Shown piece after piece: positions 36,975 through 55,328 of a stretch of 64,000 nt of DNA. The position numbers and the translations under genes are program-made. Source of the DNA: Candidatus Micrarchaeota archaeon. Lineage in GTDB: Archaea; Micrarchaeota; Micrarchaeia; Micrarchaeales; Micrarchaeaceae. Below the pieces are notes generated by a model. It searched no databases. It was not told the DNA's origin and saw only the letters and a list, made by a program, of their open reading frames with translations. Numbering within the stretch: position 1 is the first letter of the stretch; every line of letters begins with the position of its first letter. The stretch is from assembly GCA_028866905.1 (NCBI GenBank), contig JAGWHI010000002.1:7219-71218 (forward strand), written 5' to 3'.

Positions 36975-37292
36975 TCACTCCATCTCCACAGTGGCCTTGT
37001 AAAGCCTGCCGGTCTCGGCGACTATGCGCTGCTCGTCCAGCATGTTGATCACGCTCGCGATGGTGACGTCGTCCATGCCGAGCCTCCTGAAGACGTTGGA
37101 GAGCTTGTCCCTCCTCAGCCCGCCCTTCTCCAGCATGGCGGCGAAGCTTATCACGTTCATGTGCCTGTGCACCTTCTCCATGTTCCCGAGCACTGCGCTT
37201 ATGCTCTTCTCGCTCACGCCGAACGCGGTGAGCAGGCGGCGCAGCTCTATCCTGCTTATCGTATAGGTACCAAGGTTAGACAGTCTCGACAC
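36975..37292 (-). CDS. small cytoplasmic helical protein (105 aa)
   Basis: Overlaps the 3' end of the ATPase gene by 17 nt. It contains short G-[VLM]-x3-4-[IL]-x2-V-x3-L units (GVSEKSISAVLGNM, GLRRDKLSNVFRRLG, MDDVTIASVINML) that also occur in the ATPase C-terminal tail. Confidence 0.5.
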   Translation of the reverse strand: MSRLSNLGTYTISRIELRRLLTAFGVSEKSISAVLGNMEKVHRHMNVISFAAMLEKGGLRRDKLSNVFRRLGMDDVTIASVINMLDEQRIVAETGRLYKATVEME

Positions 37293-38793
37293 CCGTTGAG
37301 GATATTATCCTGGTTATCAGCTGGTCCTCTATGCTCAGGCCCTTCAGGAAGCCGACTATGTTGTTCACCTGCACGCCGTTCGCCTTTATCAGCTGTATGA
37401 AGTCCAGCATCTTTATGCTCCTGTTCCTGCCGTCGAGCTCCGCGAACACCTGGTTGATGGAATCGGCGCCGACGTTGTACTCTATCAGCCGGTTCTTCAG
37501 CTCGTCCTTCTCGAACTGGTAGTCGCGCTGGATTATGTTCGCGGACAGCTCGCTCTGGGTGAGCACGTCCGACAGCTCTATCGTGTACACGTAGAGCGGC
37601 TCCTCTCCGTGGATCTTCTCAAGGAGGAAGGTCTCCGGGAACCTCAGCGCGGTCTGGAACGCCATCTCCACAGCGGCTTGGCCCACGCCGAACTTGCCTA
37701 TCTCCATCCTTATGAAGTTAGAGAAGTTGAGCGATCCCTGCAGGTAGTTCAGGAACTTCTCGAACTTTATCCTGAGCATGAACGTGGTGCCCACGTTGGA
37801 GAATATCGCCTCGTTTATGTCCGTCGGGTTCTGGGATGCGACTATAAGGCCGAAGTTGTACTTCCTGCCCTCTCGCACGATCATTATAGCGTCGCTCTTC
37901 TCGTCGCTCGCGACCTTCCACGCCTCGTCCAGTACTACCATCACCTTCAGCCCTTTCGTCTCGCTCCACCCCTCGCTCCTCATCCGCTCCTTGAGCGTCT
38001 GGAGTATGACAAGCGCCGCGAGCCCCCTGAACCTCTCGTCAGGCAGGCCTGACAGGTCGACATCCACGAGCCCCGACTCCGTCAGCTTTGCCAGGTCCAG
38101 GGTGCTCCTCCTTGCGAAGTAGTCCTCCCCCTCCCGCGCGAACTGCCTGAGCCTGTATATGGTGTTCTCGAGCTCTGCCGGGTACTCGTATGTCCCCTCC
38201 TGCAGCTTCTCCTCAAGCAGGGATATCACGTCGGCCAGTGTGGGCGCCTGCTTCTCCGTAGGATAGCGCTCTGCGAGCTCGAAGCCGGAGTTGACGTACG
38301 ACTGCTCCATCGCCTCCTCTGTCAGGCGCCTCTGCTCTGGGTATAGCGCTATGTCAGTCAGTATGTCGAACGAGTTCATTATCTGCTTGACGCGGTCGAG
38401 CGGCTTCATGCCAGACAGGTCCATTATGTTGATGTAGTCGCCCTTCGCGAGCGATACTATGGTGCCGCCGCTCTGCTTCACCCAGGCCTTGTACTCCCCG
38501 GCCCAGTCTATTATCACGGCGTTGGTGCCCCAGACGTAGCTCGCCCTTATTATCAGCGACTTCACGAAGAAGCTCTTGCCGGAACCCGTTATACCGACAA
38601 CGGCTATGTGGGGGTTGGTCAGGTTCAGGAAGGACCATGTGAACGGAACGTGGAATATCTTGGTGGTGCCGACGTAGAGCGACTGGAACGGGTCCGACAG
38701 CAGCACCTCGGCCGGGGGCTCAGGAGGCCTTGATATGAACGACCTCCTGGCTATCTCGTCGCTCATTATGTGCTGGAACCTTACTAGCGTCAT
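37276..38793 (-). CDS. VirB4/TrbE/TraC-like (HerA-FtsK superfamily) P-loop ATPase lacking the VirB4 N-domain
   Basis: Walker A AVVGITGSGKSFFVKS at about aa 75, then AVIIDWAGEY, Walker B VMVVLDEAWKVAS and REGRKYNFGLIVASQNPTDI. The DEAW and RK-x-N...(A/T)SQ blocks are VirB4-like rather than FlaI/PilB-like. Confidence 0.75.
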   Translation of the reverse strand: MTLVRFQHIMSDEIARRSFISRPPEPPAEVLLSDPFQSLYVGTTKIFHVPFTWSFLNLTNPHIAVVGITGSGKSFFVKSLIIRASYVWGTNAVIIDWAGEYKAWVKQSGGTIVSLAKGDYINIMDLSGMKPLDRVKQIMNSFDILTDIALYPEQRRLTEEAMEQSYVNSGFELAERYPTEKQAPTLADVISLLEEKLQEGTYEYPAELENTIYRLRQFAREGEDYFARRSTLDLAKLTESGLVDVDLSGLPDERFRGLAALVILQTLKERMRSEGWSETKGLKVMVVLDEAWKVASDEKSDAIMIVREGRKYNFGLIVASQNPTDINEAIFSNVGTTFMLRIKFEKFLNYLQGSLNFSNFIRMEIGKFGVGQAAVEMAFQTALRFPETFLLEKIHGEEPLYVYTIELSDVLTQSELSANIIQRDYQFEKDELKNRLIEYNVGADSINQVFAELDGRNRSIKMLDFIQLIKANGVQVNNIVGFLKGLSIEDQLITRIISSTGVETV

Positions 38794-38823
38794 CCCATCC
38801 CCATATCATATTTCGCGCTCATC

Positions 38824-38835
38824 ATTTAATAAATG
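38824..38835 (-). promoter_or_regulatory. TATA-like ATTTATTAAA about 35 nt upstream of the ATPase start (possible internal promoter)
   Basis: AT-rich element in the 42-nt gap between genes. Recognised by position and composition only. Confidence 0.25.
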
Positions 38836-39651
38836 CTACGACTGTATGTCGAAGTTGGTTGCGGCCTCCTCGTACGTCGTGGGGAGCGAGAAGTTGAACT
38901 GGAAGAGCGTGTAGAGCTCCCTGCCGACTATGCGCGCGAGCTGCACGTCCATGCCCGACATCGCCACCTCGAGCTGCTTTATCTGCGCGCTCAGCAGGTC
39001 TAGCGCCGCCTTCTCGCTCACGCCGACAGCGGTTGTCTCGAAGTACATTATCGTGGCTATCGGCTTCTCGCCCTCGCCTATGCGCGCTATCTTCGTCTGG
39101 AGCACGTTTATCTTCCTCTGTATCTCTGTGACCGTCATCTCGTTCACGTTCTGCGCCTGCATCGCCCTGGACAGCTGGAACTCCTGGAAGGAGCGCTTGC
39201 CCTCCAGCTCGTCGCGCACCTTCTGGACGTCGAGGCCTGCGGACAGCACATGATACTTGAACGGGAAGCCGATGTTCATCACGGCGCGTTCCCACGTCTC
39301 GGGGGCCTGCACAGCCTTGAGCTCCTGGTCCTGCTGCTGTTGCTCCGCCTTGAACGTGTACGCGAACACGTTGGCCGTTACGTATCCGGTCGCGTAGAAC
39401 AGCCCGTTGACGTTCTTCACTACAGCGTCCTGGGTCTTGACTATCCTGTAGTCCTTCGCCGGCTGGAAGCTCACCCCCAGCAGGTTGGTGACGAGCGGGA
39501 ATATCACGAAGTCCGCCCAGTTCATCACGAGAAGGACGCCGAGCGCCACCAGTATGAAGACCGCGCCGATGAGGCTGTATGCGCCGCCGCCCATCGATCC
39601 CAGCGACGACAGCGCCACCACTATCACGAGCCCGCAGAACGCCAGATACAC
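38836..39651 (-). CDS. 2-TM protein with cytoplasmic domain of about 200 aa; paralogue of 39669..40502
   Basis: Start trimmed to the GTG after a GAGGGA purine patch, since the longer ORF overlaps the upstream gene. Two N-terminal helices are followed by KTQDAVVKNVNGLFYATGYVTANVF... and a coiled-coil-like C-terminus. Confidence 0.5.
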   Translation of the reverse strand: MYLAFCGLVIVVALSSLGSMGGGAYSLIGAVFILVALGVLLVMNWADFVIFPLVTNLLGVSFQPAKDYRIVKTQDAVVKNVNGLFYATGYVTANVFAYTFKAEQQQQDQELKAVQAPETWERAVMNIGFPFKYHVLSAGLDVQKVRDELEGKRSFQEFQLSRAMQAQNVNEMTVTEIQRKINVLQTKIARIGEGEKPIATIMYFETTAVGVSEKAALDLLSAQIKQLEVAMSGMDVQLARIVGRELYTLFQFNFSLPTTYEEAATNFDIQS

Positions 39652-39668
39652 TATTCCCTCTTCGTCCG

Positions 39669-40502
39669 TTATATCACCTCCTCCTGGACGTTCTTGCTTA
39701 TCTGCTCGCTTATAGTCGAGAACGGAATCAGGTATTCCGGCTCTATGTAGTTGAGCAGCTCCTTGCCCGTTACTATGCTCGGCGTAACGCCGAAGGTCGA
39801 GCCTATGCCCGAAAGCAGCTCCCTGGCGTCCTGCTGCGCTATGCTCACGGCCTCGTACTCCTTGGCGCCCCGCGCAGACACTGTGGCGTAGTGCGTCAGC
39901 TCGAACGACTGGACTCCGCCTATGTGGTCGAGTATGTTGTGCCACATCGCCAGCTTGCCGCGCACCCTCTCTATGTCGCCCGGCGACCCGTTGTTCTGCA
40001 CGAGCTGGACCTCCTCGTTCTCGACCTTGCTTATCGTGTCGCGCAGCTGCTGGATGTAGTAGTCCTTGTTCATCATGTGGAGCTCAGCGGTGTACCTGGC
40101 CGGCGACTTGCTTATGCCCACAAGCCTGCTCACACGCCTGGAGAAGTCGAGCTTCTCATCGTCGCTCATCTCTGTCGCGGACCTGTATACGGGTATGCGT
40201 ATGTAGACCGTAGCTATGTAGTCCTCGCCGTCCTTCCTGATCACAGAGTCTGATGCGGTGGACAGCCAGTATGCGTCCTCGTTGCTAAGCACTATGTTGC
40301 TGCTCCTCTGCTGCATGAACGGCAGCAGCAGGTAGGTGTAGTATCTTGATGAGAACGCCAGGATGTCAAGCGCCATCGAAACTAGCAGCAGAAGCAGCTT
40401 TGCCGGTGCCGGTAATATGGTCAGAGGCGCTGATCCGGCTATTATCAGGACGACGACAGAGGATATGAAAAATCCCAGGAAGACGAATATCTTCTTGTCC
40501 AT
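39669..40502 (-). CDS. 2-TM protein with cytoplasmic domain of about 200 aa (VirB3 plus VirB4-N-domain-like, tentative)
   Basis: Two N-terminal helices, then SDSVIRKDGEDYIATVYIRIPVYRSATEMSDDEKLDFSRRVSRLV....YTAELHMM. This has the same order of elements as the start of the VirB4/TrbE N-domain. A TATA-like GGTATAAATAGG lies about 38 nt upstream. Confidence 0.55.
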   Translation of the reverse strand: MDKKIFVFLGFFISSVVVLIIAGSAPLTILPAPAKLLLLLVSMALDILAFSSRYYTYLLLPFMQQRSSNIVLSNEDAYWLSTASDSVIRKDGEDYIATVYIRIPVYRSATEMSDDEKLDFSRRVSRLVGISKSPARYTAELHMMNKDYYIQQLRDTISKVENEEVQLVQNNGSPGDIERVRGKLAMWHNILDHIGGVQSFELTHYATVSARGAKEYEAVSIAQQDARELLSGIGSTFGVTPSIVTGKELLNYIEPEYLIPFSTISEQISKNVQEEVI

Positions 40503-40580: not shown

Positions 40581-41465
40581 CTACGGGACAGTATATCCGC
40601 TGGTCCACGTGCTGATGAATATCACGTTCTGCGTCAGGCCGCTGTAGATGTTGCCGCTGTAGTCCTGGGGGCCCCCGTTCAACTGCCACCAGCCCACAGT
40701 GGCCTGCGCGTTTATCGGCGCTCCGCCTATGCCCTCGAAGTAGAGCGCGCTGACGTCGTTGGACGAGAGTGCGGTGTTGTAGAGCTGTATGTTGGAGACA
40801 TATCCCTTGAAGTAGCTACCAGATGGGACGTATCCGGCCCCTATCGAAGCCGATCCGGAGAACGTCACGCTCGGCCGGACGTTGAGCGTCTCGGAGTAGG
40901 ACGCCCCGTCGACATATACTGTCGCTGTTGTTCCGCTCCCCGGGTACGTGAAACCTATGAAGTGCCACTTGCCGTCGTTAACGACGTTCGCAGATGACGT
41001 GGTTGTGCCGCATACCTCTGCAGTCGGATGCCCGCTATAGATCCCAAGGGCCCATATCGTTCCGGCGGTGCAGGCGCTGGAACTGCCGGGATTATTGCCG
41101 TAAGAGAACACCCACGGATAGTTCGTGCTTTGCGTGGTCTGCACCCATGCGAATACGCTTATAGCGTTGTCGCCCATGGGGAAGGAGTTCTGTGGTATGC
41201 TGGTTATGTTGCTCGTCTTCACGCCAGTAAAAGACGCTACGAACTGCGGCTCCTCGTTGTTGCAAAGGCCGCTGGTCTGGGCGAACTGGCTGGTGCCCGG
41301 CCCTTCCGGCCTGACTATGCTGCATGCGCCCCCCTGCGTCTTAGGCGCGCTGCCGTTGAACACGCCTATGCTGTACAGCGCAGTAAGGGCGACCGCGATT
41401 ATTATTATGGCCCAGCCATAGGTCATCAGGTATTCCATTGCGGATTGGGCCCTTAACATGCGCAT
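40581..41465 (-). CDS. class III signal peptide (prepilin-like) protein with LamG/concanavalin-A-like domain
   Basis: MRMLRAQSAMEYLMTYGWAIIIIAVALTALY is a textbook archaeal prepilin N-terminus. AISVFAWVQT...DGKWHFIGFTY...VYVDG...GYVSNIQLYNTALS is the LamG jelly-roll pattern. Confidence 0.75.
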   Translation of the reverse strand: MRMLRAQSAMEYLMTYGWAIIIIAVALTALYSIGVFNGSAPKTQGGACSIVRPEGPGTSQFAQTSGLCNNEEPQFVASFTGVKTSNITSIPQNSFPMGDNAISVFAWVQTTQSTNYPWVFSYGNNPGSSSACTAGTIWALGIYSGHPTAEVCGTTTSSANVVNDGKWHFIGFTYPGSGTTATVYVDGASYSETLNVRPSVTFSGSASIGAGYVPSGSYFKGYVSNIQLYNTALSSNDVSALYFEGIGGAPINAQATVGWWQLNGGPQDYSGNIYSGLTQNVIFISTWTSGYTVP

Positions 41466-41499: not shown

Positions 41500-42633
41500 T
41501 CATATGAACGACCTGATCCTGCCGCCCATCTGGCTCGCGCCCCCTATGACGTTGGCCAGCTGGGTTATGAAGGCGTACGAGACGGTCGTTATCAGAGCAG
41601 GCCAGAACAGTATGAGAAGCCAGAAAGCGCTGAGGGAGTGCTGGGCGGAAGCGAGCGTGGTCACAAGCGGCGAGGTTGGGCTCAACGCGTTTACCTCTGC
41701 CCCTGTGCCTGCGCCGTACTTGTTGAGGGAAGCCGAGTACGCGGCCAGGTTGCTCTGCATGCTCGGCAGGGTGAAGTAGTATGCAATCGCGAAAAGCGAT
41801 GGCGTCACTAGGTAGAAGGCTATCGCTATAGCTACCATCATTCCGCCGAGCGCCCTGGTCGGGAAGAACGCCCGGAGCACTATGCCGGGCACTAGGAAGA
41901 CGGGTATCGCCGAGATGGCGAAGAACACTATGAGATAGTACTGCGCGTGGAGCGCCAGGATGCCGTCAGTCATGAGCCCGGCCAGTGTCACCGCAGGGTC
42001 TATGAAAAGCACTTGGAGTAGCAGCTTGAGCCTTCCGACGCTTGTGGCCCCTCCCTCCTCGCCCACTATTGGGAGCACCTGCCCATTGACATACAGGCTC
42101 TTCACCTCAAGGTTGTTGTAGAATTGGTCTGTTATGTAGACGTTGGTGAGCGAAGTGTACATCGTCTCAGTCCCGTTGATTGTGGATTGCAGCTGGTGGA
42201 GTATGTAGGGATATGGGCTGACGGGCCCGACAAAGACAGCAGGCAGTATGCCGAACAGCACTGCCGACAGGTAGAGGAAGAGCAGAACTATTATTCCGCT
42301 CGCCGTTGCCTCGTATATCTCGCCTATGCCGAAGTTTCGTATCCTGTCGCTCTTGAGTGCCGTGCCGATCATGAAGATTGCCGCTGCGACCAGGAAAGCG
42401 AGCATCACAGCGGTGAACGCGAGCGGAAGGTCACCGCACCATGTCTGCGCTATTTGCGAATTTATCGGCAGGTACCATGGCTCGTTCTGCGATATCTGCT
42501 GCTGGACCGACTGCGGGAGCTGGCTGCAGGACTGCTGCTGCGCTTGGCTCTGCTGAGCTGCGCCAGCCGATGCGGAAAGCGTCGCGATTATCGCAAGCGA
42601 TAGCAGCAAAAATGTTTTCTTGGACAACATCAT
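41500..42633 (-). CDS. polytopic membrane protein, paralogue family member 1 (VirB6/TrbL/CedA-like role proposed)
   Basis: Start trimmed to MMLSKKTF (ATGA overlap with the upstream stop). Signal/anchor helix, Gln-rich segment, motif GIVLRAFFPTRALGGMMVAIAIAFYLVTP. Confidence 0.65.
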   Translation of the reverse strand: MMLSKKTFLLLSLAIIATLSASAGAAQQSQAQQQSCSQLPQSVQQQISQNEPWYLPINSQIAQTWCGDLPLAFTAVMLAFLVAAAIFMIGTALKSDRIRNFGIGEIYEATASGIIVLLFLYLSAVLFGILPAVFVGPVSPYPYILHQLQSTINGTETMYTSLTNVYITDQFYNNLEVKSLYVNGQVLPIVGEEGGATSVGRLKLLLQVLFIDPAVTLAGLMTDGILALHAQYYLIVFFAISAIPVFLVPGIVLRAFFPTRALGGMMVAIAIAFYLVTPSLFAIAYYFTLPSMQSNLAAYSASLNKYGAGTGAEVNALSPTSPLVTTLASAQHSLSAFWLLILFWPALITTVSYAFITQLANVIGGASQMGGRIRSFI

Positions 42634-43817
42634 ATCACGCTTGTCAGGAGGGACATAAAGTCTATGCGTTCGCCGAAGGCCCTGGAGAAGTCCACTATGA
42701 ACGCATCCAGTATTATGAAGTTTATGAAGGGTATGAAGGTGAAGCCTGCGGCTATGAACAGCAGGGATGTCAGCAGGTTGGGATCCACGAAGTTTATGAG
42801 CGAGCACTGCGCGGCCGACTGCGTGATGGGCGCGACCACTTCAGACTGCAAAAGGCAGCCGGCCGTATTCAACAGTATGGTGAATCCAGCTTGCGTGCCG
42901 AACTGGACTATCGATAGCGCGTTCTGGGGGATCAGCGTAATTGTGGTTATGTTGGAATCTATGAAGCCATACGTTATGCTGACCAGTAGCGGGTAGATTA
43001 TCCCAAGGCCCAGGCCGAGCGCGATAAGAGTTCCGCCGAAAGACCTGGTCAGGCCGAAGGTCCTCGCCAGCAGGCCGAGGATTATGAAAAGCGCGAATAG
43101 GAACACGCTTGACGAGAGTATGAGCAATTGCACCTGGCTCAGCATTGTCAGGGTTATTATCGCCGAGTAGGATATGGAGGTCACCTGCTCCATGGACTGC
43201 GGATACAGGCTCGCGAGCCCGAAGCTGACGTTGAGTATAGAGTCGCCAGGTGGCGGGCCGAAGCCTGCAAGTGGCGACTTGGAGCCAACCTGGCTCGCGG
43301 TTGATGGTGCGGACTTGCCCACCGGCAGGTAGACGTTGAACCATATGCCAGGGGTAAGTCCAGTAACTATGGATGTGATGTACACCAGCGCAAACGACGT
43401 GTATGCGCCGCTGTTGAAGTTGCTTAGGTCGCACACCGCCAGGGTGTTGAGGCTACCTGCGGACGCGCATTGTGGCGGGATGAGCCCGACCTTCGAGAAG
43501 CCAGGCTGCGGGCTTAGCATCGTTATGTATGCTACGGAGCCGAACGCTACGAGCAGCAGCACGGACAGCAGCCCCTCGTATATCTGCGTACGCGACCAGT
43601 TCCTGGCGGCGCCGCTACCCGTTATGCCCGAGAGCATGTACACTATGGACGCTATAGCTATGACCAGGAGGACTATCGCGGTGGCCAGCGGTATCCAAGA
43701 GGTTGTGTCTATCGACGGCGTCTGCACAGGGCCCGCAGCGTAAATGACCGGCATAAGCAGCGACACCATTACGAACGCGGCCGGCAATGCCTTTGCGAGT
43801 TTAGACTGCAGCATCAT
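42630..43817 (-). CDS. polytopic membrane protein, paralogue family member 2
   Basis: Motif GLLARTFGLTRSFGGTLIALGLGLGIIYP. ATGA overlaps at both ends. Confidence 0.65.
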   Translation of the reverse strand: MMLQSKLAKALPAAFVMVSLLMPVIYAAGPVQTPSIDTTSWIPLATAIVLLVIAIASIVYMLSGITGSGAARNWSRTQIYEGLLSVLLLVAFGSVAYITMLSPQPGFSKVGLIPPQCASAGSLNTLAVCDLSNFNSGAYTSFALVYITSIVTGLTPGIWFNVYLPVGKSAPSTASQVGSKSPLAGFGPPPGDSILNVSFGLASLYPQSMEQVTSISYSAIITLTMLSQVQLLILSSSVFLFALFIILGLLARTFGLTRSFGGTLIALGLGLGIIYPLLVSITYGFIDSNITTITLIPQNALSIVQFGTQAGFTILLNTAGCLLQSEVVAPITQSAAQCSLINFVDPNLLTSLLFIAAGFTFIPFINFIILDAFIVDFSRAFGERIDFMSLLTSVI

Positions 43818-45013
43818 ATCACGTTCCTCAGCACATGTTTGGACTGCATGCTTGGCGCGCCGAGCAGCTGGCTCAGGTATTGGACGAAGTCAAGCGCGGT
43901 CAACAGCGAGAGCACCACCGCTATTATGGCGTATACCGACGGGACTATCACGTTCAGTACGAATGAGCACACGGTGTACTGGTAACCCTTGAAAAGATCT
44001 ACCATGGTCGGCAGATAGCTGGACGGGCTTGCGAATGTTATGCTGCTGCCTATGCTCTGCAGGGTGACCTGCTGCGGTGGAACGGGCGCAGCCGAGCCGA
44101 AGCATATGGTTGGCACGGCTGTTGAGAGCCCTGTTATGTCGGGCAGTGTCAGCATATAATACAGAAGCAACGGGAAGACTATATAGAAGCTGGCGAAGAG
44201 CGCTATGAACGCGCCGCCTGCGGCCCTGGTGAACGGCGTAGACCTTAAGACCACCCCGGCGAACAGGAAGAACGGGAAGACGTAGTAGAATACTGCAGGC
44301 AGCATGGATAGCGCGAGCATTGCCGCGAGAATCCCCCAGCTCACGTTGATCATTGTCGACAGCACCTGCGCTATAGCCGAAAGGCCGCTGAGCGGGGCGA
44401 CTATGAACCCGACACCGCCAGGCTTAAACGTTATGTATATTGAGCTTAGTATGTTGAGCGAGTTCTGCTCTGTAATCAGGGATATTATGCTTGAGAAAGG
44501 GTTGAGGGCGACCCCGGACAGTATATTGCAGTCTGATTGGAATACCGTAACGTTGAGCGAGGAGCCGCCGAGCGCGAACAGGCCAGATGGACCAGATATG
44601 ATATTTATTGCTGAAAATGTGCCAAGGAATACGTACACTACCGCTGCCGTTATCACTATCTCCCCCATCTCGACCTTTGCGAATCGCGTCAGCTTGTCTA
44701 TATGGAATGCGCTCCCTATGGCCCAGGCCAGCGCCATTATGCCGAGCATTACCCCGATCAGCGCAGTGGCAAGCGCTATAAGGCTGTTGAGCGCGAAAAG
44801 GTTCGACACGTCGGCGAAGCCCCTGTTGGAGGTGAAGAGCGCGTTGCATAGGGATGCCGAGCCGCCAGTCTGGCTCTGCGATTGCGTTGTGGCAGAGAAG
44901 ACTGTTGGGGAGGTCTGTGAGTACGAGCTTTGCGGCAGGGCGACCACCGCAAGCGCAGCTATCGCGATGACCGCAGCCGCGAAGCCAATGATCCCGTTTG
45001 CCACATCATTCAC
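43814..45013 (-). CDS. polytopic membrane protein, paralogue family member 3
   Basis: Motif GVVLRSTPFTRAAGGAFIALFASFYIVFP. Abuts its neighbours with a 0-4 nt gap or overlap. Confidence 0.65.
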   Translation of the reverse strand: MNDVANGIIGFAAAVIAIAALAVVALPQSSYSQTSPTVFSATTQSQSQTGGSASLCNALFTSNRGFADVSNLFALNSLIALATALIGVMLGIMALAWAIGSAFHIDKLTRFAKVEMGEIVITAAVVYVFLGTFSAINIISGPSGLFALGGSSLNVTVFQSDCNILSGVALNPFSSIISLITEQNSLNILSSIYITFKPGGVGFIVAPLSGLSAIAQVLSTMINVSWGILAAMLALSMLPAVFYYVFPFFLFAGVVLRSTPFTRAAGGAFIALFASFYIVFPLLLYYMLTLPDITGLSTAVPTICFGSAAPVPPQQVTLQSIGSSITFASPSSYLPTMVDLFKGYQYTVCSFVLNVIVPSVYAIIAVVLSLLTALDFVQYLSQLLGAPSMQSKHVLRNVI

Positions 45014-46552
45014 CTATATAAGGCGCGATAGCCCTGCCAGGGAGGTGTCGCCACCCAGCAGCCCGGAGAGGCCCAGTATCGCAGCTATCACTATCAGTAT
45101 ATTTATTATCGGCAGGAAATACGTCGATACGCCTATCATGCCATAGGCGCTCATGAATCCGTAGAACATGCCCAGCATGCCGTCGGCCGGACAGTTGTAA
45201 GGCAGCGGGAAATTTGGCGCACCCTTCTGGAACCCGAGCGCACCCACGTTCAACGATATGAAGGATATCACGTCGGGAGCCGGCACCATGGTCCACAGTA
45301 TGTCCTCCGACTCTGCCTCAACGAGGTTGCCGTCGCTTATTGTCTGCGGAAGCAATTTGTTCCCGAAGGCTGGGCCGCCAGGCCAGCAGGCGTAGTACTT
45401 CCCTATCGCCTTCATGCTCGGCTGCACGAAAAAGTTCGGCACGTATGCCGAGATGGACCTATTGGGGAAGACCGCAGTGTTGTTTGCTGCCGGGATGGCG
45501 AGCGTTGAGTTGGTGCTGGCGTTAAGCAGGCCTCCGAATCCGTACACTGATGCCGTGCTATTAGGCGAACTCGAGAACGCCGCAGCTGAACCATGGCCGA
45601 GCGCGAGATACTCTATCCCGAACACCGTGGGGTAAAATATCACCATGCCTATCGCTACAGCTATCAGGAGCCCTCCTATCTTCCGCGTCAGGAACACCGC
45701 CCTCAGCAGCAGGCCGCCGAAGATGAGGTACGGCCAGATGTATATGGACGACACTATTATGAGGAGCTGCGCCACGCTGGCCTGGAACGACAGGTCCATG
45801 AGGTAGGATATCACCTTCATCGAACTGTATATCATGTCGTAGCCGTAATAGGGCCTGAAGTCGAACTTGAGGTAGAACAAAGACTGCCCTGCATTCACGG
45901 TGGGGAAACAGCTCACCACGTTGGACCCTGGCACGCAGATTTGTATCGCCGGCCTCAGCCTTGACAGGAATCCCACGAACGAGTCCTCGACCATATAGCT
46001 GTTTAGGTTTGCCACTGACTGGTTTGTCAGGTTGGCGACCACGACACCAGTGGCGGCGAGCGGATACTCTATCTCTGCGGTGAGGCTGCTCTGCGGATAC
46101 CCGACTATGCCACACAGGCCAGGGAACGGCTGCTGCGGCGTCTGGGTCGTGCTGGGCGGCGCTGCGGCGTTTAGTACAGAATCCGCTTTGCCGAGCAGCT
46201 GCAGGTAGGTGGTATTGCTTATCTGGCTGCACAGTGACATTATTGACGACTGCGACAGCAGGCTGCCCTTGTTAAGCGACCCTTGCGCCTGGAATATCGA
46301 TGCGTACGACACAAGCGCGCCGATTATAATCATAGTAAGTATCACAGTTCCTATCAGCTGGTAGAACTCGTTCAGCGCGCCCTGCTTCGCCCCCTGGTTC
46401 CGCAGCAGCGTAGCAGCGAAGTACCATACTGCCACTATCATGGCGTCGAGCAGGAGAGCCGCTATAATCAGGGGCATTATGTCGGTCTGCACTGGCGAGA
46501 CCACAGGCAGCGCGGAGGAGGTGGCCGCCAGTAATATCTGCGATGGTGTCAT
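45014..46552 (-). CDS. polytopic membrane protein, paralogue family member 4 (longer external loop)
   Basis: Motif GLLLRAVFLTRKIGGLLIAVAIGMVIFYP. It has an extra C-terminal loop and helices. Confidence 0.65.
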   Translation of the reverse strand: MTPSQILLAATSSALPVVSPVQTDIMPLIIAALLLDAMIVAVWYFAATLLRNQGAKQGALNEFYQLIGTVILTMIIIGALVSYASIFQAQGSLNKGSLLSQSSIMSLCSQISNTTYLQLLGKADSVLNAAAPPSTTQTPQQPFPGLCGIVGYPQSSLTAEIEYPLAATGVVVANLTNQSVANLNSYMVEDSFVGFLSRLRPAIQICVPGSNVVSCFPTVNAGQSLFYLKFDFRPYYGYDMIYSSMKVISYLMDLSFQASVAQLLIIVSSIYIWPYLIFGGLLLRAVFLTRKIGGLLIAVAIGMVIFYPTVFGIEYLALGHGSAAAFSSSPNSTASVYGFGGLLNASTNSTLAIPAANNTAVFPNRSISAYVPNFFVQPSMKAIGKYYACWPGGPAFGNKLLPQTISDGNLVEAESEDILWTMVPAPDVISFISLNVGALGFQKGAPNFPLPYNCPADGMLGMFYGFMSAYGMIGVSTYFLPIINILIVIAAILGLSGLLGGDTSLAGLSRLI

Positions 46553-46561
46553 ACGTATAAC

Positions 46562-47764
46562 CTATATTCCGCTCCACAGCGGGGTTGCTCCTTCTATGCC
46601 GGCATTGAGCGCTTTCGAGAGATTTACTGCGAACGCTATCGTTATTCCGAGGTTCAACGCGAACAGCACGATCGCCTGAAATATGAATGTCGCCATTTTA
46701 GCGGTAAGGTCGTCTAGCCCGACCCACGGAGTAAGGAAGTTGCTGATGAAGTAGTTTCCCGTGAGGATGTTGCCAAGGAATCCAATGGCGTACGGGCTTA
46801 TGCTGAATCCCGGTATCGTAACTGTTGTCGCGCTGGTGGATGACACCGCCTGCTGGAAGAAGGTTGGCGGCAGATTCGATATCGAGAAGTTGAATGTGTG
46901 CAGGTACTGGTACGACGGGTTGGAGCTGCTGAACATCCATGTCATTATGTACGCGTCCATCGAGATGGTCAGCGGATAGACTATGTAGAACGCCACGGCT
47001 ATTGCTATCATTGAGTTGGCCGCGCTCCTCAATCCGCCGCCTGCGCCAGCGAACGCTATGGACCTCAGCGCAATGGCTATCGGAAGTATGATTACGAATG
47101 CGGTATATTGGGCCAGCGGTACTAATATGTATTGCAGCAACATGGCCCCAGTTGTCACTATCAGTATGGGGGAGAAGATGTCCAGATACAGCTTGCTCAG
47201 TATCGCGAAGGTGACGCCTATGTTGGTGCCTATGTACGGGGTAACGTAGACCGCGGTTCCTGCCGGCGCGCCGGACTTCAGCTTGAAAAGCGGCGTCCCT
47301 ACGTTGAACTTATTGAGGTACCCGCCAAGGGCGATGTTGAGCAACGCCTGCGCGCTGGCGTAGTAGAGCTGGCCCGTCAGCGCTGAGCTCATCGCATCCG
47401 TGTAGACCTGCGAGAGCATGCCCATTCCCGTGTTGAACGTGAGGTTGCCTATATAGTAGTCAGCGAACTGGAACGGTGACATCTGCTGGCCAGTGATCCC
47501 CTGGCTCAACGACGACGATACGCCGCACACTGTCGAGGCCGTAAGCGCGAGCACCATGATGATGACGCCGCTTATGACCATCTGGATTATCTCTCCGCGC
47601 ACCATTGAGGTAAACCTGGTCCTGATGTTTGTCGGAAGGTACCTGCTGAACATGTAGACTGCAGCGATGGTGAGCAGCCCGACCAGTATAACTGTGAAGT
47701 TGACCCCGAGCCAGCCGCTTGCGTAGGTTGAGCCACCGTACAGTGCACATGTGTCTACAGCCAT
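46562..47764 (-). CDS. polytopic membrane protein, paralogue family member 5 (divergent motif)
   Basis: Motif variant IAIALRSIAFAGAGGGLRSAANSMIAIAVAFYIVYP. Confidence 0.6.
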   Translation of the reverse strand: MAVDTCALYGGSTYASGWLGVNFTVILVGLLTIAAVYMFSRYLPTNIRTRFTSMVRGEIIQMVISGVIIMVLALTASTVCGVSSSLSQGITGQQMSPFQFADYYIGNLTFNTGMGMLSQVYTDAMSSALTGQLYYASAQALLNIALGGYLNKFNVGTPLFKLKSGAPAGTAVYVTPYIGTNIGVTFAILSKLYLDIFSPILIVTTGAMLLQYILVPLAQYTAFVIILPIAIALRSIAFAGAGGGLRSAANSMIAIAVAFYIVYPLTISMDAYIMTWMFSSSNPSYQYLHTFNFSISNLPPTFFQQAVSSTSATTVTIPGFSISPYAIGFLGNILTGNYFISNFLTPWVGLDDLTAKMATFIFQAIVLFALNLGITIAFAVNLSKALNAGIEGATPLWSGI

Positions 47765-47768
47765 TGTT

Positions 47769-50504
47769 TCACGCGAGCTTGAACTTGCCTAGCGACAGCT
47801 TGTTCCTTATCGTGCCGCCCAGCACATTTGCAATCGATTCTATAATAACGACCATTATCACCAGGTCGAAGATGAAGAGGATGAACTGAAGCAGCATCCC
47901 GAACGAGTATCTGGTCAGTGCGTTGATCGGGGGATACACGCTGGCGGCCTGCGGCAGCAGGTAATAGCCGTTGGTCTGCTCGGAGTACCCGCAGAACGAC
48001 CCGAATATGGTCGATATGCCGTCCTGCCATCCCGGCCCTGACGACGGGGAGCCCGCATAACTGTACACCGCCTGCGCGCCGGATACGAAGGGCCAGAGCA
48101 CGGGTATGTTTCCGCAAGGCAGCGGAGGGTTCGGTGGGTTCTGCAGCATCAGGAACGAAGTTGCGTAGTTTGTCAGCGGGATATTGAAGAGCAGCATCAG
48201 CGTCGGGTATATTATCGATATCCCTATGCCTAGCGCTATCATCGTGCCGCCCACTGGCCTGAGGAACGGGAATGCCCTTAGCACTATGCCGATAGGCAGC
48301 AGTATTCCGAGCCCTATGAACGCCATGAGCGGGAGCAGGCTGAGCTGTATCGAGGCGAGCAGCATCACAGGCACTATGATAAGCGAGAGCATCGATGTCA
48401 GGAATGATATGCCGCCAGTATCGCCGCTGTCAAGCACAGTGTTTTGGTAGATGTATTGCTTGTAGACCCCGAAAGTCACGTCCACGAGATTGGGGTACGG
48501 GGGCGGCAATATCGGATAGTCCGCATACACATCTATCTGCAGCGACTTGATCGCCGAGTAGGCGAGCGATATGCCTAGCGATTCGCTGAATGCCGACTGC
48601 GCGGCCAGGGACTGGGGCAGCAGGTACTGGTTTGCGACAGCCGCATAGAGGTTGCCAAGATTCGTTGCAAGGGAAGCGGACTGGGCGACCGTGCTGTTGG
48701 AATACAGGCCTGACGGCTGCTGCGGAGTTATGCCGACCAGGCTGACAGCGACACTGCCAAGTATCACTATGACGGAAAACACTATCGCTATCACGAAGAG
48801 GCTCTTCGTCGCCTCCCAGAGCTCGGTCTTGTACCAGTTCTTGAGCCCCTCGACCCTCAGCACCTCTCCCACCATGTAGGCTATAGCGACGAACAGTAGC
48901 GACAGCATAAGGCCTATGAATGCGAATGGCAGCGCGCTTGTCACGCATTGGCCGAAGAATTGCGGGAATATCTGGAATGTTCCGCCGACCGCCCTGCCGA
49001 AACTGCTGAAGCTACACGCCTGTGTTATGCCCGCGCCAGTAACGTTGACGGGCATACCCTGTATCACTGTGAGGGTCGCCGATTCCGTATTTACGCCGTC
49101 GCTTGCCGTGATCGTGTGCGTGCCTGGCGTGGTGTTTACGCCCTTCGTGGTGTTCGCGACGGCCAGGGAATAGTTGAAGGAGCTCTGGAATGCTGAGCTT
49201 ACCGGTATCTTGGCGATTAGCTTGCCGTCGTACTTAAGGGTTATGTTTGTCGCAAGCGCGGAAAATCCGCTGCCGGAGATCGTAACGCTGCCGCCCCAAT
49301 ACGATGACGTGGGACTGATGGTTAACGATGGCGTGACATTGAAGTACGCTACCGCAAAAGGCGGAGGCGCTGATGGGGTGGGCCCTTGGGTCGGTGTTGC
49401 TGTAGCGGATTGCGTTGTCGGCGTAGCGTTCGATGTCCCGACTTGGGCCACTATCTCGTGCTTCCCTGAGCCTGACTGGGGAATAGGGAACACAGCCACG
49501 AACGAGCCAGGCAAAGGATCAGAAGTGGAGTTGGTTACCACCTTCTGCGGTATTGTTGCTGCCTCAACGCCATCGTATGTTATGTTAACAATCGCAGACG
49601 CAGGGAACCATACCCCAGATATTACTGCCACAGTTCCTACATGGCCCTTCGACGGCGTTACGGTTATGTACGGCGTCGGTATTGGGCCTACGGGCTGCTT
49701 CTGTGTCGTGTATAGGCCAGACCAGACCGGCTCCCCCTGCTGCGTAAATGTGAGGTTGGATCCGACAACGAACCCGTTCGTCCTGTTGCCTATCTCTCCG
49801 ACACCGAACGGATAGCTCTGCTGCACCGATTGCGCGGTTGTGTAGACGCTTCCGTTGCTTACGGGAACGAAGGCCGTACCGTTGTAATAGCTTACGTTAG
49901 TGAACTCGACGACCTTGAGCAGTTCCCCTGTGGCGTTCGTGCCATTGTACTCCACTGAAGCGACCGGCTGGCCGCCTGAGGATTTGGTAGCGTTGATCGT
50001 TGCGCTGCCTATCTGCGCGCCGTTGAAGTACACGCTCCAGCGGTTTCCGTTCGCCTTTATCGCGTAGCTGTTAATCGTGCCGTCCGGGCCTGCGGATCCG
50101 TCTGGCCCGTAATTCGTATAAACCTGCTGGCCGGACCCAGGCTGGTAGCTCCAGAACCAGGCAGCCTGTCCGTGGGTTAGGTGCACAGTCCCGGTGCATC
50201 CGAGCGCGCTGCAGCCGGTCGGGAACTGGCCGGTCTGGTTTGGGAAAAGGTAACCCGCCTTTATAGAGGCGCCGTTTGATAGCGATTCGCCGATCCATGC
50301 GCTGGTCGTGTTGCCCTGCTGGCCCAGGTTCTGCACCACAGTGACTATGTTGGTGCTCGCGCCGTAGTTCGGTGAGCTCCCGTTCGCGAATATGCCAGTC
50401 TGCACATCCTGGGGGGATGATGAATTCGCGTATGCGCTGTTCGAGAGGAGCGCGAGCAGCACGACTGCCGCTAAAAGTAGCGAGGCTCCCTCCCTGACAG
50501 GCAT
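47769..50504 (-). CDS. 911-aa fusion of a signal peptide plus ectodomain of about 500 aa (lectin-like N-domain and two IPT/Ig-like modules) with a C-terminal membrane domain, paralogue family member 6
   Basis: Signal LLLAAVVLLALLSNSAYA. Ig-like modules TVTPSKGHVGTVAVISGVWFPASAIVNITYDG and LTISPTSSYWGGSVTISGSGFSALATNITLKYDG. Membrane part carries GIVLRAFPFLRPVGGTMIALGIGISIIYP. Confidence 0.7.
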   Translation of the reverse strand: MPVREGASLLLAAVVLLALLSNSAYANSSSPQDVQTGIFANGSSPNYGASTNIVTVVQNLGQQGNTTSAWIGESLSNGASIKAGYLFPNQTGQFPTGCSALGCTGTVHLTHGQAAWFWSYQPGSGQQVYTNYGPDGSAGPDGTINSYAIKANGNRWSVYFNGAQIGSATINATKSSGGQPVASVEYNGTNATGELLKVVEFTNVSYYNGTAFVPVSNGSVYTTAQSVQQSYPFGVGEIGNRTNGFVVGSNLTFTQQGEPVWSGLYTTQKQPVGPIPTPYITVTPSKGHVGTVAVISGVWFPASAIVNITYDGVEAATIPQKVVTNSTSDPLPGSFVAVFPIPQSGSGKHEIVAQVGTSNATPTTQSATATPTQGPTPSAPPPFAVAYFNVTPSLTISPTSSYWGGSVTISGSGFSALATNITLKYDGKLIAKIPVSSAFQSSFNYSLAVANTTKGVNTTPGTHTITASDGVNTESATLTVIQGMPVNVTGAGITQACSFSSFGRAVGGTFQIFPQFFGQCVTSALPFAFIGLMLSLLFVAIAYMVGEVLRVEGLKNWYKTELWEATKSLFVIAIVFSVIVILGSVAVSLVGITPQQPSGLYSNSTVAQSASLATNLGNLYAAVANQYLLPQSLAAQSAFSESLGISLAYSAIKSLQIDVYADYPILPPPYPNLVDVTFGVYKQYIYQNTVLDSGDTGGISFLTSMLSLIIVPVMLLASIQLSLLPLMAFIGLGILLPIGIVLRAFPFLRPVGGTMIALGIGISIIYPTLMLLFNIPLTNYATSFLMLQNPPNPPLPCGNIPVLWPFVSGAQAVYSYAGSPSSGPGWQDGISTIFGSFCGYSEQTNGYYLLPQAASVYPPINALTRYSFGMLLQFILFIFDLVIMVVIIESIANVLGGTIRNKLSLGKFKLA

Positions 50505-54896: not shown

Positions 54897-55328
54897 TCAG
54901 CAGCTGCCCTGCGGGAGCGTGCCGTTGTTCGCTATCTGCTGGAGGATGTATGGCGCAGCAACAGCGATTATCACTCCGACTATTCCACCCATGATCATAC
55001 CCATGCCGTATCCGGTCACGGTTCCCTTCGTCTGCGCCGGAAGCACGTGCGCGCTTGCGTAAAGCGCAGCGCCGAGGATCATGAGCACCAGTCCGAGTAT
55101 GAATATGACGCTCTTGACCGTTGTGCATATAGTGGTTATGGTGTTCTGGACGTTTGTTATTCCGCCCTGGCCCACCGTAGAGCCGCCGGTGCCGACGGTC
55201 GAGCTGCCCGAAACCGTGACCTGTCCGTAAACGGCCAGCGTTCCGAACATCGTGGCGAACATCGTAAGCAGAAATGCGTATCTCGTGAATAGGTCGTATC
55301 CTTGTGCCAGAATGTTGGATATCTTCAT
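54897..55328 (-). CDS. small protein with signal/anchor helix plus two-helix hairpin; VirB2/TrbC/CedA1-like pilin candidate
   Basis: 143 aa. N-terminal hydrophobic YAFLLTMFATMFGTLAVYGQ, Gly/Thr/Ser linker, helix KSVIFILGLVLMILGAALYA, short polar loop with K, then helix GMGMIMGGIVGVIIAVAAPYIL. This is the architecture of conjugative pilins. Confidence 0.5.
   Translation of the reverse strand: MKISNILAQGYDLFTRYAFLLTMFATMFGTLAVYGQVTVSGSSTVGTGGSTVGQGGITNVQNTITTICTTVKSVIFILGLVLMILGAALYASAHVLPAQTKGTVTGYGMGMIMGGIVGVIIAVAAPYILQQIANNGTLPQGSC

Follow-up and report, generated by a model that had tools for sequence, protein, structure and literature searches.

We analysed a 64,000-nucleotide stretch of DNA from a very small, symbiotic Candidatus Micrarchaeota archaeon (NCBI GenBank assembly GCA_028866905.1, contig JAGWHI010000002.1, positions 7,219 to 71,218 of the forward strand), which as a whole is referred to here as the window. 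Three co-directional genes on the minus strand of the window encode two membrane proteins of similar size, p277 and p271, and an ATPase of the VirB4 type, the motor ATPase of type IV secretion systems (T4SS). These genes lie within a larger cluster that runs, in this order, through a pilin, six polytopic paralogues, p277, p271, the ATPase and proteins of 105, 126, 242 and 800 residues (Table 1). From the analysis described below we consider it likely that a VirB4-type motor for secretion or DNA transfer is divided here among three polypeptides, and that the p277/p271 pair anchors the ATPase.

Table 1. Genes of the cluster in the window, and smaller clusters of the same kind in other Micrarchaeota genomes.
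Feature	Position	Strand	Description
ATPase, 505 aa	37276-38793	minus	C-terminal P-loop domain of the VirB4/Ced/HerA superfamily and a C-terminal tail of ~125 aa; soluble
p271	38836-39669 (GTG-start form 38836-39651)	minus	two membrane helices and a cytoplasmic (predicted) TrsD/VirB4-N1-like domain
p277	39669-40502	minus	paralogue of p271; two membrane helices and a TrsD/VirB4-N1-like domain
105-aa protein	36975-37292	minus	overlaps the ATPase stop; a separate protein paralogous to the C-terminal tail of the ATPase
six paralogous polytopic membrane proteins	41500-50504	minus	directly upstream; order conserved; no Pfam match
143-aa small membrane protein	54897-55328	minus	first in the cluster; homologue of the VirB2/TrbC-type pilins that related clusters encode
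minimal clusters	L042:5730-8252, L043:11436-14262, L049:8740-12639, L051:8346-12032, L052:5743-9327		

The ATPase carries its Walker A motif (GITGSGKS) at residues 67–74 and its Walker B motif (VMVVLDE) at residues 284–290, and its hydropathy profile is free of any hydrophobic segment. In Pfam it matches the DUF87/HerA-central, AAA_10 and TraG P-loop entries, and its best NCBIfam models are those of the VirB4-like CD1110 family, CedD, CedB and F-type TraC. Alignments with hidden Markov models (HMMs) of the VirB4 family are in every case confined to the C-terminal ATPase part of the model (positions 393–692 of 752 in CD1110, 427–736 of 800 in TraC, 422–683 of 792 in TIGR00929 and 254–535 of 590 in CedB), and the VirB4 C-terminal domain 4ag5 is the only PDB sequence match that spans the ATPase domain, HerA proteins scoring higher over shorter stretches. 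With both Walker motifs and with matches to CD1110, TraC, TIGR00929 and 4ag5, the P-loop domain belongs with those of VirB4/TrbE/CagE, at scores that lie well short of the family cut-offs (39 bits against 643 for TIGR00929 and 71 bits against 325 for CD1110; for CedB and CedD (NF041017, NF053655), 64 bits against an equivalog cut-off of 700 and 70 bits against 600, respectively). The CedD and CedB scores are about on a par with those of the VirB4 models. The canonical VirB4 N-domain is described here as two parts, N1, the first ~170 residues of VirB4, and N2, the second N-subdomain, which is the PF03135 region. The ATPase, which covers positions 393–692 of CD1110, is without both of them: no PF03135 domain is present on its polypeptide, the alignment beginning at about position 393 of the 752 in the CD1110 model, and neither PF03135 nor PF05101 has a match anywhere in the genome at E ≤ 10. 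Across the order, 20 orthologues of the ATPase measure 500–511 residues, so the short N-terminus is ancestral and not a local truncation. These data confirm that the ATPase lacks a canonical N-domain, as a preliminary description of the sequence had claimed, and that it lacks a membrane segment as well. In one related genome (G044, L045:6485-9628), the ATPase gene is split near the P-loop by a LAGLIDADG intein, giving a Pfam-confirmed open reading frame (ORF) of 1047 residues that an open frame of 1067 residues in a second genome (G124:C37) resembles by appearance.

The two proteins encoded immediately upstream of the ATPase are related to each other. BLASTP finds 20% identity between p271 and p277 over 206 residues (E 0.003), and profile–profile comparison with hhalign aligns them over 204 columns at a probability of 91.6% (E 8e-7); on this sequence evidence they are true paralogues, and many relatives from other Micrarchaeota families score alike with the profiles of both. 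The AlphaFold2 (AF2) models, obtained at a mean predicted local distance difference test score (pLDDT) of 82.1 for p277 (69 homologues) and of 80.8 for p271 (67 homologues), share one succession of elements: two N-terminal membrane helices, a β-β-α-β unit, a long helical hairpin, a β-α unit and a short tail. Both N-terminal helices are hydrophobic by hydropathy as well as in the models, and the presence of two helices, together with basic residues after the second one, implies that the domain that follows should face the cytoplasm. The duplication, the two N-terminal transmembrane helices and the strand-strand-helix-strand order put forward in the preliminary description are thus borne out. 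The 271-residue form of p271 begins at a GTG at position 39651; its orthologues, of 277 residues, have their M-D-E-E start six codons upstream of it. In the window this conserved start position reads ACG (39669-39667), overlaps the TAA stop of p277 ('TAACG', 39667-39672) and sits 5 nucleotides downstream of a GGAGGTGA motif; it could be a non-canonical start, the GTG that follows six codons later could be used instead, or the assembly could contain a base error.

Comparison of the predicted folds brought both proteins close to VirB4. When the models were searched with Foldseek against 350,542 PDB chains, TrwK, the VirB4 protein of plasmid R388, occupied ranks 1–14 for p277 (E 6.6e-3 to 0.11, probability 0.92–1.0) and ranks 1–5 for p271 (E 3.6e-3 to 5e-2), and the next matches, which were generic, began at E 0.14–0.3. 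In the viral library BFVD, rank 1 was taken by a protein of 437 residues that is recorded as 'Component of type IV transporter system' (template modelling (TM) score 0.40, root mean square deviation 5.6 Å, E 6.7e-4) and rank 2 by the VirB4-like protein gp155 of Bacillus phage G (E 2.6e-3), the record of which annotates it as VirB-like and which has its P-loop domain at residues ~320–549. Structures that comprise an ATPase domain only (4ag5, HerA and TrwB) were absent from the lists for p271 and p277, and from this absence we infer that the matched part of TrwK is most likely its N-domain. An identity of p271 and p277 with VirB8-like (NTF2) proteins or with ring-building motifs was also considered and was rejected, no such matches being found in the fold lists. 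The phage G locus itself (gp154-gp156, L055:2837-7337), in which the compact 549-residue VirB4-like protein is flanked by a 125-residue putative membrane-spanning protein and an 825-residue DUF87/TraG-D_C-like ATPase, looks like a small T4SS-like module in a giant phage.

Profile comparisons with hhalign provided a second line of evidence. We used a broad profile of the Micrarchaeota family (A3, 82 sequences), two narrow profiles (A1 and A2), and a target set for N1 that was assembled by hand from stand-alone TrsD/TraD-like proteins and from the N-termini of fused monoderm VirB4 proteins. A3 matched the combined N1 set over 166 columns at a probability of 93.8% (E 1.7e-7, score 55.0), the stand-alone N1 proteins only at E 6.4e-6, and five membrane-anchored or archaeal N1 proteins only at E 3e-6 over 190 columns; reversed, column-shuffled and block-shuffled controls, 18 in all, gave scores of at most 22.6 and P ≥ 0.018. 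The N1 set is in turn tied to VirB4, since its stand-alone members match the fused VirB4 N-termini at E 5.6e-8 and the whole set matches columns 10–207 of TrwK at E 8.3e-5. Between A3 and the TrwK ATPase domain the comparison gave P 0.14. For a repeat within the N-domain of TrwK, tested by comparing N1 with N2, there was no support (P 0.12), and among the larger Micrarchaeota ATPases (676–1052 residues), considered as a source of an archaeal VirB4 N-domain, none carries PF03135. Together the fold searches and the profiles support the view that the cytoplasmic domain of p271 and p277 is a remote relative of the first N-subdomain of VirB4. N2 has no counterpart in the ATPase, in p271 or in p277. 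The resemblance to the start of the VirB4 N-domain that had been noticed by eye in the preliminary description hence stands, on the top Foldseek ranks and on the match of A3 to a set that itself aligns with the beginning of TrwK. Its suggestion that the proteins might also be VirB3 is unsupported by sequence: PF05101 has no match, and this identity draws on nothing beyond two membrane helices and gene position. PF03135, proposed together with PF05101 as a check on both proteins, has no match either, and direct comparison with proteobacterial VirB4 remained at P 0.02–0.5.

The closest precedent for such a detached module is TrsD of pGO1-type and Patescibacterial T4SS, for which remote homology to the N-terminus of VirB4 has been described (PMC12102498). 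In monoderm and haloarchaeal VirB4 loci a stand-alone protein is encoded directly upstream of the ATPase, either TrsD/TraD (~200 residues) or an unnamed protein of 290–537 residues, and several of the latter have membrane helices: two in the protein of Geobacillus pGS18, one in that of Paenibacillus, and four, at the C-terminal end, in that of Halarchaeum. The stand-alone proteins have in common with the start of CD1110-type VirB4 and with the start of gp155 a signature composed of a strand, an 'E..F..FL' helix and a further strand. The 348-residue, two-helix protein of pGS18 matches both the TrsD model NF041427 (E 1.3e-20) and positions 9–170 of CD1110 (E 4.7e-6), a TrsE-type ATPase covers CD1110 positions 195–739, and fused VirB4 proteins begin with N1; TrsD and TrsE thus add up to one CD1110-type VirB4. 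On haloarchaeal plasmids, 'hypothetical' proteins of Halarchaeum (L056:1286-2899) and Haladaptatus (L057:1823-2881) bear the VirB4-N1/TrsD-like signature and are encoded directly upstream of a VirB4-like ATPase. TrsD-like proteins with a membrane anchor occur on plasmids of Bacillales as well as of haloarchaea.

Akin to the TrsD/TraD family (NF041427; pGO1/pSK41-type), p271 and p277 are stand-alone proteins encoded beside a VirB4-type ATPase with remote homology to the start of VirB4, and like some TrsD-like members (those of Geobacillus pGS18 and Paenibacillus) they have N-terminal membrane helices. They differ from TrsD in that neither matches NF041427 at E ≤ 0.1, in that they occur as a pair of paralogues, each anchored in every case by two helices, and in that they are archaeal; moreover, TrsE, the partner of TrsD, keeps the second N-subdomain, which the Micrarchaeota ATPase is without. 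With VirB4/TrbE/CagE (TrwK, PDB 7O41-7O43 and 8RTB/8RTD; TIGR00929; CD1110, NF045971) the cluster has in common the C-terminal P-loop domain, in the ATPase, and the fold and remote profile similarity of the N-domain start, in p271 and p277. It departs from them in placing N-domain and ATPase on separate polypeptides, in the absence of the PF03135 region and in an ATPase that scores below all curated VirB4 cut-offs (about 70 bits against 325–643). The crenarchaeal Ced system for DNA import, and likewise TedB, resembles the Micrarchaeota cluster in having archaeal, chromosomal VirB4-like motors and paralogous proteins that combine a membrane segment with a partial VirB4-like N-domain: CedB and CedD each contain a membrane segment, different parts of a VirB4-like N-domain and an ATPase, and together may form one N-domain (PMC11868833). 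In CedB and CedD, however, these parts are united in one chain and the ATPase is duplicated, whereas in Micrarchaeota a single ATPase is accompanied by a detached and duplicated anchor with N1. VirB3, PrgI and TcpD-TcpE also have two membrane helices and genes directly upstream of virB4, a likeness that is generic and does not prove homology, and two such small two-helix genes stand in tandem in MPF_FA systems (PMC12857230), as do those of p277 and p271; yet VirB3-type proteins measure 10–15 kDa and have no globular domain, unlike p271 and p277, which are 30 kDa in size and have a domain of ~200 residues.

The three genes are widely conserved together. The ATPase is present at 62–80% identity in 41/41 genomes of the order and in 134 of the 151 genomes that sample the whole phylum, there at 51–80% identity; 133 of these 151 carry the p271 family, and the families without the ATPase (f10, f15, f17, f18, f20 and most of f11) are also without p271. 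Homologues carry the names Candidatus Micrarchaeota or Micrarchaeaceae, the source genome of the window measuring 0.886 Mb. Gene order is identical in 19/19 loci of the order and is found in other families of the class as well. The distance between the p277 and p271 genes ranges from –4 to +10 nucleotides in all 19 loci, and that between the p271 and ATPase genes is mostly 6–58 nucleotides, a tight spacing which suggests that the three may be coupled in translation. A distant subgroup of ~240-residue proteins (P0429-P0480), of the same two-helix and N1 family (E 1e-10 to 1e-4), comes from metagenome assemblies only; none was found in single-protein scans of genome and metagenome contigs, nor does it occur in the five Micrarchaeota families that are without the system.

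Many Micrarchaeota genomes contain a second, minimal cluster (Table 1) in which a VirB2-type pilin and a single polytopic protein are accompanied by one N1-type protein (178–267 residues) and by an ATPase of 342–513 residues that has no N-domain, and a HerA-like ATPase of 676–691 residues is encoded near two of these clusters. The same split without duplication in the minimal clusters indicates that the split is the rule in this lineage; the N1 duplication is confined to the large cluster and predates the class. A search of the literature found no paper on the Micrarchaeota T4SS-like cluster.

Taken together, the domain content of the three proteins, the paralogy of p271 and p277, their fold and profile homology to VirB4, the tight gene spacing and the co-occurrence across the phylum lead us to favour a motor in three parts. 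The ATPase retains only the hexamer-forming C-terminal P-loop domain and is soluble, and p271 and p277 each contribute a two-helix membrane hairpin with a (predicted) cytoplasmic N1 domain homologous to TrsD/TraD and to the start of VirB4. The two paralogues may assemble into a hetero-oligomeric, membrane-anchored cytoplasmic collar that tethers the ATPase ring to the membrane below the channel and passes on the movements of the ring. In R388, VirB3 and VirB8 bind to the VirB4 N-domains (residues 15–400), which also provide the dimer contacts within a hexamer of dimers (PMC9259494, PMC12857230), and the collar could replace the roles of both the N-domain and VirB3. It would also link the ATPase to the VirB2-type pilin and to a channel built from the polytopic proteins that are encoded upstream. 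The machine is a core chromosomal system of Micrarchaeota, and not a mobile element, and probably serves, although this is speculative, in pilus formation and/or in the exchange of DNA or other macromolecules with a host.

Several observations weigh against this interpretation. Neither p271 nor p277 has a match in Pfam or NCBIfam, and among the 82 family members none matches Pfam; a profile search of the PDB sequences gave no match either. No fused 'Rosetta-stone' form exists among the 121 relatives found in 1.84 billion representative proteins, all of which have at most 388 residues. Taken singly, the E-values that Foldseek gives for PDB chains are marginal, the TM-scores are low (0.32–0.41), and the placement of the match in the N-domain is deduced from absent matches, the Foldseek output giving no alignment coordinates. 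The strong hhalign score hinges on the broad A3 profile and on the hand-assembled target set: with the N1 set as target, A1 and A2 get no further than P 2e-3 and 7e-4, A3 gives P 0.21 against three bona fide TrsD sequences alone, and A1, A2 and A3 all stay at P 0.02–0.5 against a TrwK-type VirB4 profile of 60 sequences, which was compared at full length and as residues 1–400, 1–180 and 175–400. The comparison with phage G gp155 alone was likewise not significant. Finally, VirB4/Ced models outscore HerA models on the ATPase by only ~15–20 bits.

This last point bears on whether the ATPase might be a HerA-type enzyme of DNA repair or housekeeping whose neighbouring membrane genes are functionally unrelated to it. 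Its best Pfam match is indeed DUF87, the HerA central domain (64 bits), and its best PDB sequence matches are HerA proteins, but HerA models match only the central and C-terminal ATPase part and no match to the HAS-barrel N-domain is found in Pfam or NCBIfam, whereas the protein aligns over its full length with 4ag5 and with the CD1110, CedD, CedB and TraC models and keeps strict synteny with VirB2-type pilins and N1 proteins. No neighbour that was scanned bears the name NurA, Mre11 or Rad50, though no search aimed at NurA was made. On the VirB4-type full-length alignment, the strict synteny and the lack of a HAS-barrel match in Pfam and NCBIfam we reject the HerA reading as very improbable. 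A somewhat less remote concern is that the likeness of p271 and p277 to VirB4-N and TrsD is convergent, the matches being drawn by a widespread ferredoxin-like α/β fold with a helical hairpin, and that the two proteins are lineage-specific membrane scaffolds unrelated to VirB4. Such a view is consistent with the very low identity, with the want of any match between HMM and single sequence, with the generic ferredoxin-like or coiled-coil nature of the lower Foldseek matches and with the dependence of the hhalign result on a broad profile and hand-assembled targets. It does not explain why VirB4-type proteins come first in three independent fold searches, over the PDB chains and BFVD, why a score of 55 is obtained where the shuffled and reversed controls end at 22.6, or why the alignment is collinear over 166–190 columns; homology, in contrast, predicts the very position that the genes occupy, beside a VirB4-type ATPase without an N-domain. 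We regard convergence as distinctly unlikely.

Harder to set aside, if still unlikely, is the idea that p271 and p277 are accessory factors of the TrsD type that do not anchor the ATPase but act in pilin extraction, substrate recruitment or channel building, the ATPase docking directly on the polytopic or on the small downstream membrane proteins. TrsD is without an assigned function in the literature (PMC12102498), the cluster offers several further membrane proteins, and TrsE-type ATPases retain part of an N-domain of their own despite the presence of TrsD. Unlike TrsE, however, the ATPase studied here has no N-domain or membrane segment at all, p271 and p277 carry the only N-domain-like fold of the cluster, and N1 genes adjoin the ATPase gene in every cluster, the minimal ones included. 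We therefore favour anchoring of the ATPase by p277 and p271.

The preliminary description had called a duplicated, detached N-module an unusual architecture for this ATPase family. This claim goes too far: a detached VirB4-N module is not new in kind, because TrsD is known as a relative of the VirB4 N-terminus and CedB and CedD have partial N-domains. The novelty lies in the occurrence in an archaeon, in the anchoring by two helices, in a duplication of ancient date and in an ATPase that has lost the whole N-domain. The finding names candidate partners for the ATPase in a class-wide Micrarchaeota gene cluster, and links the TrsD proteins of Gram-positive and Patescibacterial T4SS with CedB and CedD and their partial N-domains, and with the N-domain collar of R388. 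It also raises the question of whether the first N-subdomain of VirB4 is a separable membrane adaptor for the motor, for which the Micrarchaeota genes would provide a simple three-protein system. TrsD occurs widely among ultra-small bacteria that depend on a host; in Patescibacteria no other T4SS component is as abundant, and in Ca. S. epibionticum it has been listed as essential (PMC12102498). The cluster may be an archaeal counterpart to the TrsD-bearing T4SS that Patescibacteria need for their epibiotic life (PMC12102498). A bolder and, in our estimate, doubtful extension would be that p277 and p271 correspond to the inner and the outer N-domains in the collar of the R388 hexamer of dimers, with one ATPase ring beneath, that the N-terminal subdomain of VirB4 is a self-contained membrane-adaptor module, capable of being detached, given an anchor and duplicated, and that DPANN archaea and Patescibacteria have independently kept a core of TrsD, VirB4, VirB6 and VirB2 as an organelle essential for life with a host.

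As for the remaining genes of the cluster, the 143-residue protein at its head has no Pfam match in the window, but its homologues match PF04956 (TrbC/VirB2) with a score that just equals the gathering threshold (E 2.8e-6), as well as PF18895 (T4SS_pilin). Besides the six polytopic paralogues, membrane proteins of the cluster comprise the 126-residue protein, a zinc-ribbon protein with two membrane helices, and the bitopic 800-residue protein. The 105-residue protein matches residues 425–501 of the ATPase in BLASTP (E 5e-6) and is kept in 20/20 related loci. Between p277 and the polytopic genes lies a gene for a LamG-domain protein with an archaeal prepilin-type signal peptide (window positions 40581-41465); only one of the 20 other related loci has a homologue, which gives this gene the look of an insertion particular to the lineage.

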